A DNA stretch of 64,000 bases from an uncultured delta proteobacterium (GTDB taxonomy: Bacteria; Desulfobacterota; Binatia; UBA9968). The translations under genes were made by a program, and so were the position numbers. Location of the stretch: NCBI GenBank assembly GCA_963771465.1, contig CAVYTU010000017.1, positions 704,001-768,000 on the forward strand. Direction: 5' to 3'. The notes below the pieces were generated by a model that was not told the DNA's origin, did not search any database, and saw only the letters and a program-made list of their open reading frames with translations. Every line of letters begins with the position of its first letter. Position 1 is the stretch's first letter. Shown here one piece after another: positions 1,188 through 64,000 of the stretch.

Positions 1188-2374
1188 CTTTGCGGTACTT
1201 TTGATTTTTTTAAACTTTGTGACCTTTGTGCTCTTTGTGGTTGATTCTCTTCATCTTCGAAGCTGTACATTCGCGCGCAGTTGTCCCACAGCCATTTGCG
1301 TTTCATTTGATCGGTGAACGGCATCTTTAGGAACGTGTCGATGGCGTGGGGGTATTTTACGTCTAGGTGGGGATAGTCGGTGGAGAAGACCATGTTGTCT
1401 TCCAGGCCGTACTCGGGGATGTGTTTGGCGGTGATCTCGTCGCATTCCACCGCGCCGTAGCAATTGCGCTGGAAATATTCCAGTGGCGTGAGTTTGAGAT
1501 CGGGATACTCCGCTACGCCGGTGGTCTCGGCGTATTCGCCCATGCGCCAGAGCAGCCACGGCACCCAGGAGCAGTTGCCTTCGAGAAAGGCGACTTTCAA
1601 TTTCGCAAAGCGCTCCATCACGCCGCCGAAGATCATGTCGCCGCAGGCCAACATATTGGCGAACGGAAAGCCGAAAGTATTGAACATCGAAAAGGTCGAG
1701 CAGATGTGGAAGAACGCCGGCTGCGGCAGATAGACGCGGCCGGCTTCGTGAAAGCCGACGGGCAAATTCAGCTGCTCGCACTCGGCCCACAAGGGATCGT
1801 AGTAGGGATCGCTCCATTTCTTGTTATTGACGTGATTGGGGCGAATAAAAATGCCGCGAAAGCCGTAATCTTTCACCGTGCGGCGAATCTCCTCGACGGC
1901 GCCGCTGATGTCGTGCGGCGCAACCATGGCGATGCCGAACATGCGTTTGGGATCGGCTTGGACGAAGTCGTGCAGCCAGTCGTTGTAGGCGCGCGCGATG
2001 GCCGTGGCGAAGTCCGGGTCTAGCCCGTCGATCCCCAACACCGTTAGGGCGCGAGTGGGAAACAGAAACGCGATGTCCAATCCTTCTTTGTCCATGGCTT
2101 GCAGTTGCGACACGCCGTCGAAGTTGCGCGCGCCGGCCGCGCCGTACTTCTCGGCGAAAAACTCTTGGCGATACTTTGCCAATGCGGGATTTTCCGGCTG
2201 GCGTGGGATCGGCATGACTTTACCTTCGACCTCCACACCGAGGTCGCGAAACGCACGGTTCAAGCCTTTTGGGGCGCGGTCGAGATATTTCCTGTCGATG
2301 TAGCGTTGCCACAAATCCGCCGGCTCGAAGACGTGCATGTCGGAATCCATCGCCTTGAAACCATTTTTGGCCAT
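1184..2374 (-). CDS. Amidohydrolase family 2 protein
   Basis: DSDMHVFEP, AYNDWL, YDPLW, FLEG...W.PW, FSTDYPH.D and 'DNCARMY' motifs. Confidence 0.9.
   Translation of the reverse strand: MAKNGFKAMDSDMHVFEPADLWQRYIDRKYLDRAPKGLNRAFRDLGVEVEGKVMPIPRQPENPALAKYRQEFFAEKYGAAGARNFDGVSQLQAMDKEGLDIAFLFPTRALTVLGIDGLDPDFATAIARAYNDWLHDFVQADPKRMFGIAMVAPHDISGAVEEIRRTVKDYGFRGIFIRPNHVNNKKWSDPYYDPLWAECEQLNLPVGFHEAGRVYLPQPAFFHICSTFSMFNTFGFPFANMLACGDMIFGGVMERFAKLKVAFLEGNCSWVPWLLWRMGEYAETTGVAEYPDLKLTPLEYFQRNCYGAVECDEITAKHIPEYGLEDNMVFSTDYPHLDVKYPHAIDTFLKMPFTDQMKRKWLWDNCARMYSFEDEENQPQRAQRSQSLKKSKVPQS
1188..1241. repeat. Degenerate 9-mer repeat (CTTTGTGNY x3, plus one spaced copy) inside the amidohydrolase 3' tail
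   Basis: ctttgtgac-ctttgtgct-ctttgtggt at 1215-1241 and ctttgcggt at 1188-1196. Confidence 0.6.
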
Positions 2375-2446
2375 TGTGTTTCTCCTCGAGTCAATTCTGC
2401 TTCAGTTCATTTCACCGGCGATAAGTATTTTAGCTCTTTTTTCATC

Positions 2447-2650
2447 TTAGGCGAGATCGAGAGCATTGTTGACAATATGGTTCGCCGCGACCAGACTTCC
2501 CGCACCGGTCATGTTGGGCAGGCGGCCGGCGATGAAGCGAATGGTTTTGTCTTGGTAAAAGTCTTGGGCAGAGGCACTCGGACTACCCGGCAACACCAAA
2601 GCTATGCTAATAGTCACCATACTAAGCAAACATTGCCATTTTGATTTCAT
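2447..2650 (-). pseudogene. Truncated, internally deleted TctC/Bug tripartite tricarboxylate transporter binding protein
   Basis: Signal peptide, then 'AQDFYQDKTIRFIAG' joined directly to 'NMTGAGSLVAANHIVN'. The intervening GGGYD segment and the whole C-terminal part are missing. Confidence 0.7.
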
Positions 2651-2722
2651 GGTGTTTCAGAATCGCACAAGTAGCGAGCTCGGGTCAAAACCAATGGGTT
2701 CTCATCCTGGCTGGAGGTGACG

Positions 2723-3847
2723 ATGAAGTCGTATTTTAAAAGAAGTTCTCTGGTGATGGGCTTGAGTGCTGTGCTGTTTGCTTCACATGTTCTGGGCGCG
2801 ACGCCAAATCCGGCACTCCTTAAGGCTAAGCAAGACGCAGAGAGTAAAGGCTTCATATTTGTCTCTGACCGCTCGGAGATTGTGGCGCGCGCCCAAAAGG
2901 AAGGGAAACTGGGTGTCATTACGAGCATGGAGCCTGAAACGGCCAAGGCTTCGGCACTCGCTTTCAAAAAGCGCTATCCGTTTATCGATCTCAACATCCA
3001 GCCACGAACCGGTTCCGAGTCGGCGCAGCAGCTTGTCCTGCAAATCAAGAGCGGCGGAGCCAAGGAATGGGACGTTGTCTCAACCAGTTCCGATCATATC
3101 AACGATTATATTCCGCATCTCTGGAAAGTGGATCTACAAGCAATGGCGGAGCAGGGTGTGATGCAAATTCCGGTCGCGATGGTCGACTCCACGCAGCGCA
3201 ATATCGCCGCCTTTCACAGTCGGTTTCACATTATCGCGTATAATAAAAATCTCGTTGCGCCGGCGCAGGTTCCCAAAGTGTGGGAGGATCTTTTGAAGCC
3301 TGAGTTTAAGGGAAGAAAGATTGCTTTGGACATTCGCCCTGGCTTAGCGACTCTAGTACCCGCATGGGGTTTGGATCGGACGGTGGACTTCGCACGAAAA
3401 CTGGCGAGTCAGGAACCGATCTGGGTGCGCGGCGATCCCAGGGCGATAACGGGCATGCTTGCCGGCGAGATTCCCATGATGGTGGCGGCGAATTTTCACG
3501 ACCTCAAGCGCGCGCAGAAGAAGGACCCGCTCGGCGTTCTACAATATGCGATCGTTGAACCGGTTCCGTTCAGGCTGGCGCTGGCGCAGTCGATCCTGGC
3601 GACGGCTCGACATCCCTACGCCGCGCTCTTATGGTTTGACTGGCTGGCCACTGTGGAAGCGCAGAAGATCGCCGATGAACACGAACCGATGGCATCGGCA
3701 GTTTACGTGCGTGGCAGCGCGGTGGAAGAGGAGCTGAGGGGGAAGAAACTATCGGCAGTGCCGTGGGAGAGTTACCAGAATCTCCAACCATGGTCGGCGA
3801 AGATATTCGAGGCCTATGGTTTTCCCAAAGCCGACGCGCAGCGGTGA
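2723..3847 (+). CDS. ABC transporter solute-binding protein (Fe/thiamine-like cluster)
   Basis: Signal peptide; 'A.KEGKL', 'F.KRYPFI', 'YNKNLV...PK.WEDLLKP..KG.KI', 'A.HP.AA.LW.DWL...EAQ'. GGAGG RBS upstream; start could also be GTG 2717. Confidence 0.85.
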   Translation: MKSYFKRSSLVMGLSAVLFASHVLGATPNPALLKAKQDAESKGFIFVSDRSEIVARAQKEGKLGVITSMEPETAKASALAFKKRYPFIDLNIQPRTGSESAQQLVLQIKSGGAKEWDVVSTSSDHINDYIPHLWKVDLQAMAEQGVMQIPVAMVDSTQRNIAAFHSRFHIIAYNKNLVAPAQVPKVWEDLLKPEFKGRKIALDIRPGLATLVPAWGLDRTVDFARKLASQEPIWVRGDPRAITGMLAGEIPMMVAANFHDLKRAQKKDPLGVLQYAIVEPVPFRLALAQSILATARHPYAALLWFDWLATVEAQKIADEHEPMASAVYVRGSAVEEELRGKKLSAVPWESYQNLQPWSAKIFEAYGFPKADAQR

Positions 3848-4739: not shown

Positions 4740-5912
4740 TTGAATTCCATCTCAAATTTTTCCGGCCGCTGGTTTACCACATTCGGTCACATGGAATTGA
4801 CCCAAGATGGCAGTCGTGTGCACGGATACTATGACTTCCAGGGGAATCGATGCAGCATCGAAGGATCGATTTCTGACAGCAGGCTTCAGTTTACCTACCA
4901 AGAACCTACGGTCACGGGCGAAGGTTGGTTCGAGTTGGTGCGACACGGAAGATTTGTCGGCCAGTGGCGAGTAAAAGACGACGAACGCTGGTCGTCTTGG
5001 AGCGGCGATCGCCAATTCGAGGGAATTTGGCAGAGTTCATTCGGGCTGTTGCGTCTCGTTCAGGAGCCCGATTGTGTTCTCGGTTTTTACGAGAGCACCG
5101 AGCCATGTCACTTGGAAGGCCAGGTGGAAAACAATCGTTTGAACCTGCGCTATCATGAATCGCGATCGCAAGGTGAAGCGCGTTTCGAATTGGCTGACGA
5201 TGGAGCCAGCTTTCACGGCGAATGGCGCGCGGATGGCACAGGGGAGTGGGCACCTTGGCATGGCCGGCGCCTTGCGCCGCTGCCCGGCCAAGTTTGGTTA
5301 GTCATCATCGAAGCGCATTGGCAGCGTTCGTATCTGGATAAAGACTTTGCCTTCGGCCATATGCTGCGGGAGTTTTTTGCCCGTATGCCGCATGTGAATG
5401 TTCGCCAGCGGTTTTTTGAGGATGAAGCCGGATTAGAGCGCTGGTGCCGGGAGCTTATCTATCTGCCTGAGCCGGTTGCGGTTGTTTTTGCCAGCCACGG
5501 GACGCAGGACGGCCTCGCTGTTCGCGGCAAGCCGGTCAATACCGAGCGTCTGACGGAAAGCCTGCTCTACGCCGACAATGTCGTCCTTTTGCACTTTTCC
5601 TCGTGTCTCATGATGCAGGAAGGCAAAGCGAGTGCGCTAGCGCGGTCGTTGCAAAAGGCCGTTCGATTTCCCATCTCAGGATACGATCGTAGCGTGGATT
5701 GGGCAGCCAGCGCGCTGATCGAATTTCATTATCTCGACATGGTTTTAGGGCGTGGTCTTTCACCCGCGGAAGCTGCTGAGCAGGTCCTTCACCTGATTGG
5801 CTATGCTGGCGATAAAGATGTGCCCAATTCGCCGTATCCCGCTGCGGGTTTCCGCGTATTGATGCCGGAGAAGGTGCAAGCTTCTTCGACTGTTGGTCAC
5901 CTCCGACCTTAA
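4740..5912 (+). CDS. Two N-terminal beta-barrel-like repeats fused to a caspase/CHAT-fold (DUF6642-like) domain
   Basis: Repeats 'FSGRWFTTFGHMELTQ...WSSWSGDR' and 'FEGIWQSSFGLLRLVQ...WAPWHGRR'. C-terminal 'VVFASHG', 'LHFSSC' and 'ISGYDRSVDW'. TTG start uncertain. Confidence 0.7.
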   Translation: MNSISNFSGRWFTTFGHMELTQDGSRVHGYYDFQGNRCSIEGSISDSRLQFTYQEPTVTGEGWFELVRHGRFVGQWRVKDDERWSSWSGDRQFEGIWQSSFGLLRLVQEPDCVLGFYESTEPCHLEGQVENNRLNLRYHESRSQGEARFELADDGASFHGEWRADGTGEWAPWHGRRLAPLPGQVWLVIIEAHWQRSYLDKDFAFGHMLREFFARMPHVNVRQRFFEDEAGLERWCRELIYLPEPVAVVFASHGTQDGLAVRGKPVNTERLTESLLYADNVVLLHFSSCLMMQEGKASALARSLQKAVRFPISGYDRSVDWAASALIEFHYLDMVLGRGLSPAEAAEQVLHLIGYAGDKDVPNSPYPAAGFRVLMPEKVQASSTVGHLRP

Positions 5913-35252: not shown

Positions 35253-36557
35253 ATGGTTCGTGGTAGAACTCGTGCTGCCGAGCCGGAGGCCGCCGTCGAA
35301 GACAACAGCTTGAATCTTAAAGAACTCAAGGAAAAGAAGATCGGTGACCTCGCGCTGATTGGCAAGACCTTCAACATTGAAGGCGCCGCCAATATGCGCA
35401 AGCAAGAGCTGATCTTTGCCATCTTGCAGGCGCAGACGGAGCAAAACGGCCATATCTATGGCGAGGGTGTGCTCGAGACGCTACCCGATGGTTTCGGCTT
35501 TTTGCGAGCGCCGGATTACAACTACCTGCCGGGACCTGATGATATTTACGTATCGCCCAGCCAGATTCGCCGGTTTAGCCTGCGCACGGGCGATATTATT
35601 TCGGGCCATATCCGTCCGCCCAAAGAGGGTGAACGCTACTTCGCGCTGCTCAAAGTCGAGACGATTAACTACGAAGACCCGGAGCGGGCTCGAGAGAAGA
35701 TATTGTTCGACAATCTTACGCCGCTCTATCCCAACGAGCGGTTGCGTCTGGAAGCTCAGCCTGACGATTACACGACCCGCATCGTTGACCTGCTCACGCC
35801 CATCGGTAAAGGCCAACGCGGCCTGATCGTCGCTGCGCCGCGCACCGGCAAGACGATGATGTTGCAGCATATCGCCAAAGCGATTGCGCATAATCACAAA
35901 GAAGTGATTTTGATCGTGCTGCTCATCGACGAGCGCCCCGAGGAAGTGACTGACATGCAGCGTTCGGTGGACGGCGAGGTGATCAGTTCGACTTTCGATG
36001 AACCGGCGACTCGCCATGTGCAAGTCGCCGAGATGGTGATCGAAAAGGCCAAGCGGTTGGTCGAACATGGCAAGGATGTGGTTATTCTGCTCGATAGTAT
36101 TACGCGTTTGGCGCGCGCTTATAACACGGTGGTGCCGCCAAGCGGGAAAATACTCTCCGGTGGTGTCGATTCCAACGCGCTGCATAAACCGAAAAAGTTT
36201 TTCGGCGCGGCGCGTAATATCGAGGATGGCGGCAGTCTCACCATCATTGCAACGGCGCTGATCGATACTGGCAGCCGCATGGATGAAGTGATTTTTGAAG
36301 AGTTCAAAGGCACCGGCAACATGGAGGTTCATCTCGATCGGCGCCTAATGGATAAGCGCGTTTTCCCGGCCATCGATATCAACAAGTCAGGTACCCGCAA
36401 AGAGGAGTTGTTAATCGCCAGGGAAGATTTGAACCGCATTTGGATATTGCGCAAAGTGTTATCGCAATTGAGCGTGGTCGACGCGATGGAATTCTTGCTC
36501 GACAAGATGCGCGGCACCAAGACCAATAAGGACTTCCTCGAATCAATGAGCCAATAG
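35253..36557 (+). CDS. rho: Transcription termination factor Rho
   Basis: [39 protein letters not shown] and [11 protein letters not shown] motifs. Confidence 0.98.
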
Positions 36558-60611: not shown

Positions 60612-61226
60612 ATGAGCGAGATTATCAAAATCGTCAAAATCAGCGGCACCGCCGTGCCCATGCGCGGCAACGAGATCGATACCGACCGGATCATTCCGGC
60701 GCGCTACTTAAAAGAAGTGACTTTCGCGCGCATGGGCGACTATCCATTCTTCGACGAGCGCTATAGCAGCGACGGTAAGAAGAAAGATCATCCGTTCAAC
60801 GATCCCGAATATAGCGGCGCGTCGGTGCTATTCGTCAACAAGAATTTCGGCTGCGGCTCGTCGCGGGAACACGCGCCCCAGGCGCTCAACCGCTTCGGCA
60901 TCAAGGTGATCGTCGGCGAATCCTTCGCGGCGATCTTTGCCGGCAACTGCACGATGATGGGATTGCCGACCGTCACCGTCAGCGAAAAAGACATGCAACA
61001 ACTGATGAAGAGCGTCGAAGAAAATCCCCAGACCGAGTATAGCGTCGATCTCGACAGCAAGACGCTTACCTACGGCAGCGATAGAATCTCTATCGACCTG
61101 CCGGAAACGTACCGCACTGCGCTTACCGCCGGGTCGTGGGACTCGACCGCGCTCTTGCGCGCGAACCTCGACCAGGTTAAGAAGACCGCGGCCCAACTGC
61201 CTTACATCGACAATTTCGCCGGCTAG
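60612..61226 (+). CDS. leuD: 3-isopropylmalate dehydratase small subunit
   Basis: IDTD.IIPARYLK, NFGCGSSREHAPQA and SFA.IF.GN motifs. Confidence 0.97.
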   Translation: MSEIIKIVKISGTAVPMRGNEIDTDRIIPARYLKEVTFARMGDYPFFDERYSSDGKKKDHPFNDPEYSGASVLFVNKNFGCGSSREHAPQALNRFGIKVIVGESFAAIFAGNCTMMGLPTVTVSEKDMQQLMKSVEENPQTEYSVDLDSKTLTYGSDRISIDLPETYRTALTAGSWDSTALLRANLDQVKKTAAQLPYIDNFAG

Positions 61227-61272
61227 ATTCGACTTGATTCGACGGAGCGGTGACGGGTTTCGAGAATGATCG

Positions 61273-61971
61273 ATGTCTGAACGGATCGTTTCCATGCATG
61301 CCGCCCATCGTAGCGGCAAAGAAGTCGTCGATGGTTTTCTTTCGCGTCCATCGATTGGCGGCGAACGGCCGGCGGTCGTTTTAGTCCATGGTTATCGCGG
61401 ACTCGACGACGGCCAGCGCGCGGTGACGCGGCGATTCGCTCAGGAAGGTTTTGTTTGCCTCTCGCCCGACCTTTTTCACGGCAAGACCTATCACACGCTG
61501 GAAGATTGCGCGCTCAAGAAGACTTCACTCGATATTCCGCGCGCCGTTGCCAACATCGTCGACAGCGTACCCTATCTCAGAAAACTGCCGTGGGTCGGCA
61601 AGAAAAAAATCGCTGTCTTGGGTTTCTGCATGGGCGGCGGTTTGGCGCTCTACGCCTTGGCCCAATCCAAAGCCTTCGATGCCGGCGTGATCTATTACCA
61701 AAGCATGTTTCCCGACCCGGAGGATTTAAAGAGCATCAGCGCGCCGATGCTTTGCCACTACGGTACCGAGGATCACGGCACGACTCAAACAGAAATCGAC
61801 ATGTTTCGCGAGAGCCTGGACCGCTACAAAAGAAAGTATCAGATCGAGATGTATGCCGGCGCCGGTCACGCGTTCTTGAACAATCCATCGAGTAAGATCG
61901 CCGCCAATCGTGGCGCGGCGGAAAAATCGGTTGGTAGCACGACGAAGTGGCTGAAAAAAACATTGGCGTAG
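61273..61971 (+). CDS. Dienelactone hydrolase family
   Basis: GFCMGG nucleophile motif, 'G.ED', 'Y.GAGHAF.N'. Confidence 0.9.
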   Translation: MSERIVSMHAAHRSGKEVVDGFLSRPSIGGERPAVVLVHGYRGLDDGQRAVTRRFAQEGFVCLSPDLFHGKTYHTLEDCALKKTSLDIPRAVANIVDSVPYLRKLPWVGKKKIAVLGFCMGGGLALYALAQSKAFDAGVIYYQSMFPDPEDLKSISAPMLCHYGTEDHGTTQTEIDMFRESLDRYKRKYQIEMYAGAGHAFLNNPSSKIAANRGAAEKSVGSTTKWLKKTLA

Positions 61972-61998
61972 TTGATGGCGAATGACTGGAGTTTGGTG

Positions 61999-62304
61999 AT
62001 GGCAAATAAATGGGACGAGCGAAAAAAGGCGCAGGAAGATGAATACTTCGTCAAGAAAGAGCGCGAGCAATTGGCCAAGCTTAAGGCCAAGCAGGATGCC
62101 GAAGCCAAAGAGGCGACGAAGATAGCCACTTATATGAAATGCCCCAAATGCGGCGAACCGCTCAAGGCGCGCAGCTTTCAGAAAATCGAGATCGACCAGT
62201 GCACTGGCTGCGGCGGTATTTGGCTCGACTCCGGCGAGTTGGAAAGCGTCGCCGAAAAGGAAGGCGGCAGCTGGTTGGGCAAGTTCTGGCAGAAAAACGG
62301 CTGA
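61999..62304 (+). CDS. Small protein: charged N-terminal helix plus zf-TFIIB-like Zn ribbon
   Basis: MANKWDERKKAQEDEYFVKKEREQLAKLK... then 'CPKC...ID.C..C.GIWLD.GELE'; GGAG RBS. Confidence 0.88.
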   Translation: MANKWDERKKAQEDEYFVKKEREQLAKLKAKQDAEAKEATKIATYMKCPKCGEPLKARSFQKIEIDQCTGCGGIWLDSGELESVAEKEGGSWLGKFWQKNG

Positions 62305-62355
62305 AGCGGGATGACAATCTAGTTACGTAAGGTCGATTCTAACAAGGAGACGGCG

Positions 62356-62916
62356 ATGAAAAAGCTCATCAGACATGTCGCGATTGTTTTGACGCTAACA
62401 GTGGTTCAGTTCACGGCGCCATTGGGCGCGCAAGAAGGTAAAATTGTTCCTTACGTGCCGACGCCGCAGGAAGTGGTGGATCGGATGCTCGAACTCGCTC
62501 AGGTTAAAGCGGGCGATGTGGTTTACGATCTTGGTTCGGGCGACGGACGGATCGTTGTGACGGCCGCCAAGAAATACGGCGTCAAAGCGATTGGTTTTGA
62601 AATCGACCCGCAGCGGATCAAAGAGTCCCATGAGAATATCAAAAAAGCCGGAGTCGAAAAATTGGTCGAGATTCGCCAGCAGGATATTCGCACCGTCGAT
62701 TTGTCGCAGGCGAGCGTGTTGACCATGTATCTGCTCCCGGAGGTCAATTTAATGATCCGGCCCAATATTTGGAAACAGATGAAAACCGGCTCGCGCATCG
62801 TATCCCACGATTTTGACATGGGCGATTGGAAACCGTTGAAAACCGAGCACATTAAAGACGGTTCGAGTTGGGATCATACGCTTTACCTTTGGCATGTCGA
62901 GGCGGGGAAGAAGTAG
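62356..62916 (+). CDS. Class I SAM methyltransferase, FAM173/aKMT-like, with hydrophobic N-terminus
   Basis: 'VPYVPTP..VV..ML.LA', 'DLGSGDGRIV..AA', 'G.EID', 'YLLP', 'G.RIVSHDF...W.P'; AAGGAG RBS. Confidence 0.88.
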   Translation: MKKLIRHVAIVLTLTVVQFTAPLGAQEGKIVPYVPTPQEVVDRMLELAQVKAGDVVYDLGSGDGRIVVTAAKKYGVKAIGFEIDPQRIKESHENIKKAGVEKLVEIRQQDIRTVDLSQASVLTMYLLPEVNLMIRPNIWKQMKTGSRIVSHDFDMGDWKPLKTEHIKDGSSWDHTLYLWHVEAGKK

Positions 62917-62939
62917 GTACGGTCGAGCGAGTAAATTCC

Positions 62940-64000
62940 ATGAAGCTCAAGCTGATCGTTTGTGGGGCGCTGGCCGCCACTTGTTATCTGACAGAGTCAG
63001 CGTCGGCGCAGATCAAGATCGGTGTCGCCGAGGCGTTGACCGGCAACGCTGCGCAGTATGGCGTGCCGATCCGCAAAGGCATCGAGCTTGCGGCAGGGGA
63101 GATCAACGCTGGCGGCGGGATCAACGGCAGCAAGATCGAGCTTGTCATCGAGGATGAGCAGGGGAAAAAAGAAGAGGCGATCAACGTTTTCAAGAAGCTC
63201 ATTTTTCAAGATAAGGTGCTGATGCTTTTTGGCCCGACCCTGTCCAATTCGGCGCAAGCCTCCGATCCGGTGGCGCAAGCGGCCAAGGTCGTCGTCTTTG
63301 GCACCTCGAATACCGCCGACGGCATCACGTCCATCGGTAACTTTGTTTTCCGCAACTCGGTTACCGAGGCGGATATTTTACCGGTGACGTTGAAAGTGGC
63401 GGCGCAGAAAACCGGCCTGAAAAAAGTCGCGGTGTTTTACGGCAACGACGACATCTTCACCAAGAGCGGCTACGACAATTTCAAGAAAGCGCTGGAGGCG
63501 CTTAAGATTCCGGTGACGACCACGGAGACATTTGCCAAAGGCGATGTGGATTTCAAACCGCAGCTGACCAAGGTCAAGTCGAGCAACCCCGATGCGATCG
63601 TGTTGTCGGCGTTGGTCGCCGAAGGGGCTCCGGCGATGGTTCAAGCCCGGCAACTGGGTATCGCTCTGCCGTTCATCGGCGGCAACGGTATGAACTCCCC
63701 CAAGATTTTCGACCTGGCGAAAGACAATTCTGATAACTTGTGGGTGGGCAGCCCTTGGTCCAGCGAGAATCCCGCGGCCGAGAATAAACGCTTCATCGCC
63801 AGCTATCAGAAAGCGCATGGCGCTTTACCGGACCAGTTTGCCGCGCAAGCCTATGACGCGTTGTATATCGTGGCTCAGGCGCTCAAAAAGATAAAACTCA
63901 ACGGCAAACTGGAAGCGGACCGCGCCGGGCTGCGCAATGCGCTGCCGGCAACTCAATGGGCCGGCGCCACCGGCCCCTTCAAATTCCGCCAGGTTAACGA
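62940..64000 (+). CDS. Branched-chain amino acid ABC solute-binding protein (runs off the 3' edge)
   Basis: Hand translation: signal peptide, 'IKIG...LTG..A.YG', 'EINAGGGING.KIEL..ED', 'DF.PQLTK.K..NPD', 'AAQAYDA'. Confidence 0.9.
   Translation, partial: MKLKLIVCGALAATCYLTESASAQIKIGVAEALTGNAAQYGVPIRKGIELAAGEINAGGGINGSKIELVIEDEQGKKEEAINVFKKLIFQDKVLMLFGPTLSNSAQASDPVAQAAKVVVFGTSNTADGITSIGNFVFRNSVTEADILPVTLKVAAQKTGLKKVAVFYGNDDIFTKSGYDNFKKALEALKIPVTTTETFAKGDVDFKPQLTKVKSSNPDAIVLSALVAEGAPAMVQARQLGIALPFIGGNGMNSPKIFDLAKDNSDNLWVGSPWSSENPAAENKRFIASYQKAHGALPDQFAAQAYDALYIVAQALKKIKLNGKLEADRAGLRNALPATQWAGATGPFKFRQVN

Follow-up and report, generated by a model that had tools for sequence, protein, structure and literature searches.

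A bacterial zinc-ribbon protein with an IF1-like N-terminal helix: a possible inhibitor of F1Fo ATP hydrolysis

Is the inhibitory helix of IF1 confined to mitochondria, or do bacteria also encode a protein that uses such a helix to stop their F1Fo ATP synthase from running backwards? The question is raised by a gene at positions 61999–62304 of the forward strand of a 64,000-nucleotide stretch, referred to here as the window, which covers positions 704,001 to 768,000 of contig CAVYTU010000017.1 of an uncultured bacterium of the class Binatia (assembly GCA_963771465.1). The gene encodes a protein of 101 residues, here called P0001. The original prediction, made from the DNA alone, described P0001 as an IF1-like helix fused to a zinc ribbon. 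P0001 appears to be a small cytoplasmic protein composed of three parts: a helix with the IF1 signature in its first approximately 25 residues, a structural four-cysteine ribbon, and a short aromatic tail. Judged from sequence comparisons, the best single explanation is that P0001 is an IF1-like inhibitor of F1Fo ATP hydrolysis, a reading to which we assign a probability of about 0.38. This reading follows from a significant two-way likeness to IF1, the specificity of that likeness, the agreement at contact residues, the constraint on the core of the helix, and the presence of the target enzyme in the genome.

Likeness of the helix to mitochondrial IF1

The N-terminus of P0001 reads exactly as first quoted, and the gap-free match to residues 22–46 of bovine IF1, which had been proposed with eleven identities in twenty-five positions and a tryptophan in place of F22, was reproduced in the HMMER alignment. 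The alignment pairs residues 5–38 of P0001 with residues 22–55 of bovine IF1 without gaps. The eleven identities lie within residues 5–29 and comprise R8, A11, E13, Y16, F17, E23, Q24, L25, A26, L28, and K29 of P0001. The IF1-like core formed by residues 5–29 is encoded by positions 62011–62085 of the forward strand; it is supported by the match to the Pfam model IATP, the alignments to IF1 chains in the PDB, the column counts of an alignment of relatives, and codon constraint. IF1 (ATP5IF1, or Inh1 and Stf1 of yeast) has the same helix signature with the same spacing, aromatic-x5-A-x-E-x-x-Y-F-x5-E-Q-L-x-x-L-K. Unlike IF1, P0001 is bacterial and contains neither a presequence nor the N-terminal 21 residues of mature IF1.

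The Pfam model IATP (PF04568) matches residues 3–44 of P0001 with its positions 50–91 of 98, at 25.2 bits and an E-value of 2.4e-5. P0001 thus passes the gathering cut-off of the model, which is 25, as a borderline case. When the model was applied to six-frame translations, the gene scored 24.6 bits, or 25 together with its in-frame neighbours. A phmmer search of all PDB sequences returned 23 sequences with E-values of up to 10, of which eleven were IF1 chains. These chains share a single gap-free register, in which residue 5 or 6 of P0001 corresponds to residue 22 or 23 of mature IF1.

The search in the other direction was based on alignment A1, which contains P0001 and 29 single-ribbon proteins of approximately 87–121 residues, matched over nearly their full length and taken from the best 150 matches of an exhaustive search; the relatives have identities of at most 68%. 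The profile of these 30 sequences matched bovine IF1 in the PDB with an E-value of 0.0032, in the same register as the single sequence. At E-values of up to about 1 it also matched the IF1 proteins of yeast (3zia), Tetrahymena (6ynx), Neurospora (6yw5), and pig (6j5i). The register that equates residue 5 of P0001 with residue 22 of IF1 holds for the bovine and pig proteins, and the chains from yeast, Tetrahymena, and Neurospora are numbered differently. Nineteen of the 30 relatives match IATP with an E-value of up to 1; unlike P0001, most members of the family fall below the Pfam cut-off.

The specificity of the likeness is indicated by three scans. The IATP model applied to all six frames of the 6.9-Mb genome matched this gene alone at E-values of up to 10. 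Across 201 genomes of the phylum, the same model gave seven matches with E-values of up to 0.01, and the translations of all seven belong to the helix-and-ribbon family. A 44-column profile of the helix, used with filters switched off against 100,297 stop-to-stop open reading frames of the genome, identified only the gene of P0001 (E-value 4e-18), and the next match had an E-value above 4. These results speak against an artefact of generic charged helices. As far as sequences can tell, the likeness of the P0001 helix to IF1 is specific and more than chance.

Constraint on the helix and the nature of the ribbon

According to passages of Bason et al. 2011 (PMC3041923), the bovine IF1 residues F22, A28, E30, Y33, F34, Q41, L42, and L45 contribute binding energy in the inhibited F1 complex. 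The same passages describe a salt bridge between E30 and R408 of the β subunit, and a pocket for F34 that is formed by V404, S405, and R408 of β. P0001 contains W5, A11, E13, Y16, F17, Q24, L25, and L28 at the corresponding positions, and is identical to bovine IF1 at seven of the eight. The column counts of A1 showed which of these residues are retained in the family. E13, the counterpart of IF1 E30, is kept in 29 of the 30 relatives, and F17 (IF1 F34) in 28. Position 16 (IF1 Y33) is aromatic in 29, with tyrosine in 24 and phenylalanine in five. L25 (IF1 L42) is replaced by other residues than leucine, isoleucine, or valine in only four relatives (26 of 30 retain one of the three), and L28 (IF1 L45) is leucine or methionine in 22. 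The original prediction had staked itself on the conservation of E13, Y16, F17, and L25, and all four positions turned out to be conserved. Position 5 (IF1 F22), which is gapped in nine of the 30, is tryptophan, leucine, or phenylalanine in 20 of the remaining 21. E23 (IF1 E40) is kept in 24 of the 30 relatives, and among the other columns of the helix, aspartate or glutamate occurs at position 14 in 25 and at position 21 in 27, and lysine or arginine at position 29 in 26. Most conserved in the helix are E13, Y16, F17, E23, L25, and L28, whose IF1 counterparts are important for the inhibition of F1. Only six columns of A1 are listed as near-invariant (at least 90%): E13 and F17 in the helix, and L55, C71, D77, and E80 in the ribbon.

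The constraint on the core is also apparent at the codon level. The gene from the window was compared with 27 orthologues from close relatives, which were chosen because they align over the full 303 nucleotides, mostly covering residues 1–101; none was dropped because of a stop codon or an insufficient length. The changes were mostly synonymous, and non-synonymous ones made up the smallest share of codon differences in the core, residues 5–29 (64 of 364, 0.18), followed by the ribbon (196 of 599, 0.33), the tail (76 of 192, 0.40), and the linker formed by residues 30–46 (204 of 303, 0.67). Within P0001, constraint is therefore strongest on the IF1-like segment. The linker (62086–62136, forward strand) is helical and variable, with a high non-synonymous share and a length and sequence that vary in A1.

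The zinc ribbon extends over residues 47–86 (62137–62256, forward strand) and contains the cysteines C48, C51, C68, and C71 and the motif GG-x-WLD-x-GEL. The CxxC...CxxC ribbon that had been noticed at the C-terminus was identified as a member of PF13453 (Zn_ribbon_TFIIB), with an E-value of 1e-17 and 63.7 bits against a cut-off of 22; the match to the model, the four cysteines, and the motif G-x-W-L/F-D establish the membership. C48, P49, C51, C68, G73, and W75 are invariant in A1, and C71, D77, and E80 are kept in at least 90% of the sequences. The ribbon of P0001 matches that of ZifS (TTHA0897) from Thermus thermophilus (PDB 8YOZ) with E-values of 9.6e-6 in phmmer and 1.4e-12 in the profile search. 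Whereas the ribbon of ZifS is N-terminal and is not accompanied by an IF1-like helix, that of P0001 follows the helix. A literature search that covered openly licensed articles in PubMed Central and bioRxiv, and may have missed subscription papers, returned no paper on ZifS under its accession code, locus tag, or descriptive name, and almost nothing on PF13453. The suggestion that the protein is gated by metal or redox state found no support; the four cysteines look structural, and two relatives (P0248 and P0250) have lost the ribbon cysteines. Two more open reading frames with PF13453-type double ribbons are present in the same genome (C16:102328–102657 and C12:158214–158576), and neither contains an IF1-like helix.

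A rival explanation is that the resemblance to IF1 is convergent or fortuitous, and that P0001 is a generic small zinc-ribbon protein of the PF13453/COG3809 type with an unrelated role, whose amphipathic helix forms homodimers or packs against the ribbon. The hydrophobic positions 5, 12, 16/17, 24/25, 28, and 32 have a heptad-like spacing that would suit such a helix, and the borderline IATP score is compatible with it. An exhaustive search of 1.84 billion cluster representatives gave 8,072 matches with E-values of up to 1e-3, the majority of which involve only the ribbon, and PF13453 occurs there in many architectures, including proteins with two to six ribbons; tandem duplications of the whole module exist as well. 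A word-indexed search gave 633 homologues at the same threshold; the best 120 are named only as zf-TFIIB domain-containing, Zn-finger nucleic acid-binding, or hypothetical proteins, and public annotations say no more than this. However, convergence leaves four observations unexplained: the near-invariance of E13 and of Y16-F17 across relatives of 50% identity or less, the coincidence of the conserved positions with the F1-contacting residues of IF1, the selection of one family in 201 genomes by the IATP model, and the stronger constraint on the core than on the ribbon. We consider a convergent or fortuitous likeness unlikely, though more probable than the other rival explanations.

A structure of P0001 was predicted with AlphaFold2 from A1, with a mean predicted local distance difference test score (pLDDT) of 76.5 and a predicted template-modelling score of 0.40; these values leave the relative placement of the parts undefined. 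The model contains a long N-terminal helix of residues 2–44 (62002–62130, forward strand; pLDDT 90–91 for the block of residues 11–30), a β-ribbon of residues 46–76, a helix of residues 78–87, and a terminal helix of residues 92–100. The last of these belongs to the C-terminal tail (62257–62301, forward strand), which is rich in tryptophan and phenylalanine and in which a W/F-x-x-x-F/L-W/F-like pattern recurs in A1. It was considered that the tail might be a membrane-targeting amphipathic helix, and the claim was dropped, as the hydrophobic moment exceeded that of shuffled sequences at a level of 0.05 or less in only one of the 30 sequences. In a Foldseek search, the ribbon of the model matched the fold of ZifS in 8YOZ with a root-mean-square deviation of 1.1 Å over 42 columns and 43% identity, and the list of matches included ZifS, MqsA, and polymerase ribbons. 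A wide fold search of the monomer model with VIA-align gave only generic long-helix or coiled-coil matches (Z 5.6–5.9), and a look-alike search of the ESM Atlas with residues 1–46 gave no usable match.

The order of elements in the model also resembles that of TraR, which we take to consist of a long N-terminal helix, a four-cysteine zinc module, and a C-terminal helix. P0001 could accordingly be imagined as a TraR- or DksA-like factor, whose acidic N-terminal helix enters the secondary channel of RNA polymerase while the zinc module and the C-terminal helix serve as holders. One source names one cluster of relatives "RNA polymerase-binding transcription factor DksA", and at one locus (L127:3569–5251, genome G141) three tandem paralogues are located between a gene for a RelA/SpoT-domain and TPR protein (1779–3062) and a gene with a GreA/GreB C-terminal domain (5277–5675); the motif E-x-x-Y-F is kept only in the middle copy. 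This gene context, however, comes from one locus of 112. The type of ribbon differs, being that of PF13453, and there is no sequence match: the DksA/TraR zinc finger (zf-dskA_traR) did not match P0001 at E-values of up to 10, did not figure in the 25 families that the 30 relatives matched most often, and neither DksA nor TraR appeared in the Foldseek list. Such a role is highly improbable.

The putative target, the gene neighbourhood, and the alternatives

The genome contains one F-type operon, located on contig C14 at approximately 620.3–626.3 kb, which encodes the delta, alpha, gamma, and beta subunits and a full-length epsilon subunit. The beta subunits of this genome and of 20 others of the phylum were aligned, and all 21 contain K/R-x-x-V-x-R-A-R after the segment DELSE(D/E)D. 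The arginine that matches R408 of bovine β, within x-R-A-R, is thus present in all of them. The placement of this bacterial arginine at R408 is based on the passages of PMC3041923 together with the general form of the motif. The gene atpA of this genome is split into two overlapping frames, one of 283 residues and one open from 622739, at C14 positions of approximately 622721–622770 (L012 positions 1483–1532). The break lies within the segment SLLLRRPPGRE, which is uninterrupted in 20 relatives, and the split probably reflects a single-base error in the assembly, not a pseudogene. One genome that carries the helix-and-ribbon gene, G020, was considered as a counter-example lacking atpD and rejected, because it contains a partial atpD at a contig end. 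Within the window, a frame of 459 residues weakly matches the nucleotide-binding part of atpD/atpA at approximately 35775–36401 (forward strand; G000 C17:739775–740401; E-values 1e-8 to 5e-8); it is likely to encode another ATPase of the RecA-fold or P-loop type, for instance Rho or an enzyme of a secretion or flagellar system.

Based on the likeness to IF1, a mechanism of inhibition can be proposed. We infer that P0001 binds F1 and inhibits it, and that the site is the one used by IF1. When F1Fo runs backwards, the helix would enter a catalytic α/β interface between the two subunits' C-terminal domains. The partner of E13 would be the conserved arginine in the "ARAR" segment of β just after DELSE(D/E)D, and Y16, F17, L25, and L28 may pack on the C-terminal helices of β. 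Rotation in the direction of hydrolysis would be blocked, as it is by IF1 and zeta. The ribbon, which would stand where IF1 has its dimerising coiled coil, presumably stays clear of F1, forming a folded handle that may serve in dimerisation or anchoring. A complex of residues 82–469 of β, a C-terminal fragment of α, and γ, all from this genome, with residues 1–46 of P0001 (supplied as alignments A2, A3, A4, and A1) was predicted with a score of 0.02, compared to a mark of 0.32. The prediction used a single α/β pair with truncated α and was made without controls, so it weighs neither way on binding.

Several observations weigh against an IF1-like inhibitor. IF1 has a C-terminal antiparallel coiled-coil dimerisation region with a histidine-rich pH switch; both are absent from P0001, in which the zinc ribbon and the aromatic tail take their place, and residues 1–46 contain no histidine. 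The IATP score is barely above the cut-off, a precomputed PF04568 call exists for only three of the 120 close homologues listed, and E-values may be optimistic for a query as short and charged as this helix. The agreement with IF1 is incomplete, since Q24 (IF1 Q41) is kept in only three of the 30 relatives and A11 (IF1 A28) in 14, and the common subtype with the N-terminus KPSxxEEEYFAR does not contain a segment equivalent to F22–E26 of IF1. The profile of A1 also weakly matches the plant complex I subunit P2. IF1-type helices can bind complexes other than F1, and an IF1 dimer is described on the Neurospora mitoribosome (10.1101/2020.01.31.929331). According to passages of another paper (PMC10949317), bovine IF1 has no inhibitory effect on bacterial F1, and its selectivity depends on residues in the C-terminal part of β. 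We observed no difference in the C-terminus of β between five genomes that carry the helix-and-ribbon gene and 16 without it, which is a small sample.

The gene neighbourhood likewise argues against the inhibitor. No atp gene was found within 8 kb of the gene in 72 loci from species-representative genomes, or within 3.5–5 kb (less at contig ends) in another 40 loci, which come from other genera of the phylum. However, the gene of the zeta inhibitor is also located outside atp operons, according to passages of a review (PMC9317440), and the missing linkage of the helix-and-ribbon gene to atp genes therefore has a precedent. Six of the 40 phylum loci (L113, L115, L119, L124, L128, and L134) adjoin the gene of a P2-type cation ATPase with the domains Cation_ATPase_N, E1-E2, and Cation_ATPase_C. 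The proposal of an unrecognised bacterial F1Fo inhibitor thus held where the conservation of contact positions was concerned, and received no backing from the surroundings of the gene, which lacked atp genes in the loci examined and in some relatives included a P-type ATPase.

The adjoining ATPases suggest a different partner, so that the IF1-like helix would bind and regulate the P2-type cation ATPase or neighbouring machinery for ion homeostasis or membrane quality control. The six loci come from five taxonomic families, and in two of them (L115 and L124) the helix-and-ribbon gene is on the same strand as the ATPase gene, with gaps of 12 and 28 bp. Genes for an HtpX/M48 protease are present at three of the six loci (L113, L124, and L134) and for an SPFH/Band-7 protein at two (L115 and L124). 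TerC, MntP, CorA with a pyrophosphatase, and a Na/H exchanger are each encoded near the gene at single loci. At L119, an extra gene for a stand-alone ribbon of 63 residues lies between the helix-and-ribbon gene and the ATPase gene. The adjacency is nevertheless a minority pattern (six of 40) and occurs in the subtype with the short N-terminus, which is not that of the window. A search with one ATPase query gave no match with an E-value of up to 1e-120 in the genome of the window and in three of the four other genomes of the class that carry the gene, and the association with the ATPase is therefore not general. Conversely, close orthologues of the ATPase occur in genomes without a full-length helix-and-ribbon match, for example G019 and G098. 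We know of no P-type ATPase regulator that resembles the helix of P0001. Regulation of another membrane-associated partner is, on balance, rather improbable, though less so than a role at RNA polymerase.

An inhibitor of F1Fo would be of interest in view of what is known about the control of ATP hydrolysis in bacteria. The passages of the current review (PMC9317440) ascribe this control to epsilon, Mg-ADP, zeta (in Alphaproteobacteria only), and AtpTheta (in cyanobacteria), and place the origin of IF1 after endosymbiosis, with zeta as a convergent counterpart. If P0001 is an IF1-like inhibitor, it and zeta are both bacterial supernumerary inhibitors with an IF1-mimicking N-terminal segment that are encoded outside atp operons, as far as zeta is described in passages of PMC9317440 and PMC10469736. 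Zeta is a helical bundle without zinc and is reported only for Alphaproteobacteria. Unlike zeta, the helix-and-ribbon family occurs in Binatia-like bacteria, Pyrinomonadaceae, and other lineages. The echo of the N-terminus of alphaproteobacterial zeta that was initially perceived in P0001 was not borne out: the zeta family DUF1476 (PF07345) is not among the 16 Pfam families listed for P0001 at E-values of up to 10, nor one of the 25 that the 30 relatives match most often. No bacterial IF1 homologue was reported in the openly licensed PubMed Central and bioRxiv literature searched, in which the matches to "bacterial IF1" concern translation initiation factor 1.

The P0001 family may be a new variant relative to IF1, an IF1-type inhibitory helix carried on a zinc-ribbon scaffold in bacteria. 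A bolder proposal regards these bacterial proteins as true homologues of IF1. The helix would then predate mitochondria or have arisen outside them, and would act as a brake on F1Fo hydrolysis in free-living bacteria, namely Binatia-like bacteria, Pyrinomonadaceae, and roughly one in four of the phylum's sampled genomes, with the ribbon in the role of the coiled coil. True homology is doubtful, and we hold it to be less probable than inhibition as such. If correct, it would contradict the published view of a post-endosymbiotic origin of IF1 and place a third class of inhibitors of the bacterial ATP synthase alongside epsilon and zeta. With a widespread bacterial protein that has the contact signature of IF1, the origin of IF1 could be tested directly. 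The helix of P0001 would serve as a natural template for peptides suited to bacterial F1, where bovine IF1 fails (according to passages of PMC10949317), and the IF1-like reading would provide a first clue to function for some of the uncharacterised PF13453 ribbon proteins. Should the helix have another binding partner, it remains an unannotated interaction motif under strong constraint, present in 46 of the 201 genomes sampled.

The family, the gene, and its surroundings

The count of 46 genomes refers to matches that span both the helix and the ribbon, with a start at profile position 14 or before and an end at position 89 or after. Among the 633 homologues, the best 120 are 80–99% identical and mostly 101 residues long, and the organism labels include Candidatus Binatia, Deltaproteobacteria, and Chloroflexota. 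Named members of the clusters of A1 relatives include Pyrinomonadaceae (Acidobacteriota) and metagenome-assembled genomes labelled "Pseudomonadota". Three subtypes of the N-terminus can be distinguished: that of the window, WD(E/D)xKKAxE(D/E)xYF; a longer one, EKDRLGxKLxxxExAxEDxYF; and a shorter one, KPSxxE(E/D)EYFAR, in which the helix starts near position 9. A separate family of helices without a ribbon was not seen among 31 candidate short helix-bearing proteins of 25–81 residues. Thirty of the candidates gave matches with E-values of up to 10, 29 of them with identities of 65–97% and one of 55%, and these matches are taken to be truncated calls of the same gene. Seven relatives of approximately 170–220 residues (P0139, P0141, P0179, P0190, P0193, P0248, and P0250) are tandem duplications of the whole module of helix and ribbon, in part with the tail. 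P0248 and P0250 contain ribbon-like repeats without the zinc cysteines, in which the motif G-G-I-W/F-LD is retained.

The coding sequence of P0001 begins with ATG at 61999 and ends with the stop codon TGA at 62302–62304. Direct reading of the sequence showed a Shine–Dalgarno-like GGAG at 61988–61991 of the forward strand, seven nucleotides 5' of the start codon. The start position is methionine in 20 and valine in seven of the 27 orthologues, and residues A2–K4 are retained. A scan of positions 61200–63000 for promoters and terminators gave nothing beyond the expectation from shuffled sequences, and an Rfam scan of eight loci, including that of the window, detected no riboswitch or other RNA family. 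Contigs from RNA libraries of three studies overlap the gene at 62197–62634 (X15), 62125–62275 (X16), and 62013–62304 (X17); such contigs are no proof of transcription.

The gene is located 28 nucleotides 3' of a dienelactone-hydrolase gene (61273–61971, forward strand), and a methyltransferase gene follows downstream. Of the 72 loci, 53 belong to close relatives, and leuD is upstream in 39 of these; the gene order leuC, leuD, hydrolase (where present), helix-and-ribbon gene, methyltransferase, and binding protein is therefore merely syntenic. Some Binatia relatives have an intact dienelactone-hydrolase gene and others only short remnants of it, and in many it was not detected (L025–L044). Where it is undetected, the helix-and-ribbon gene directly follows leuD.

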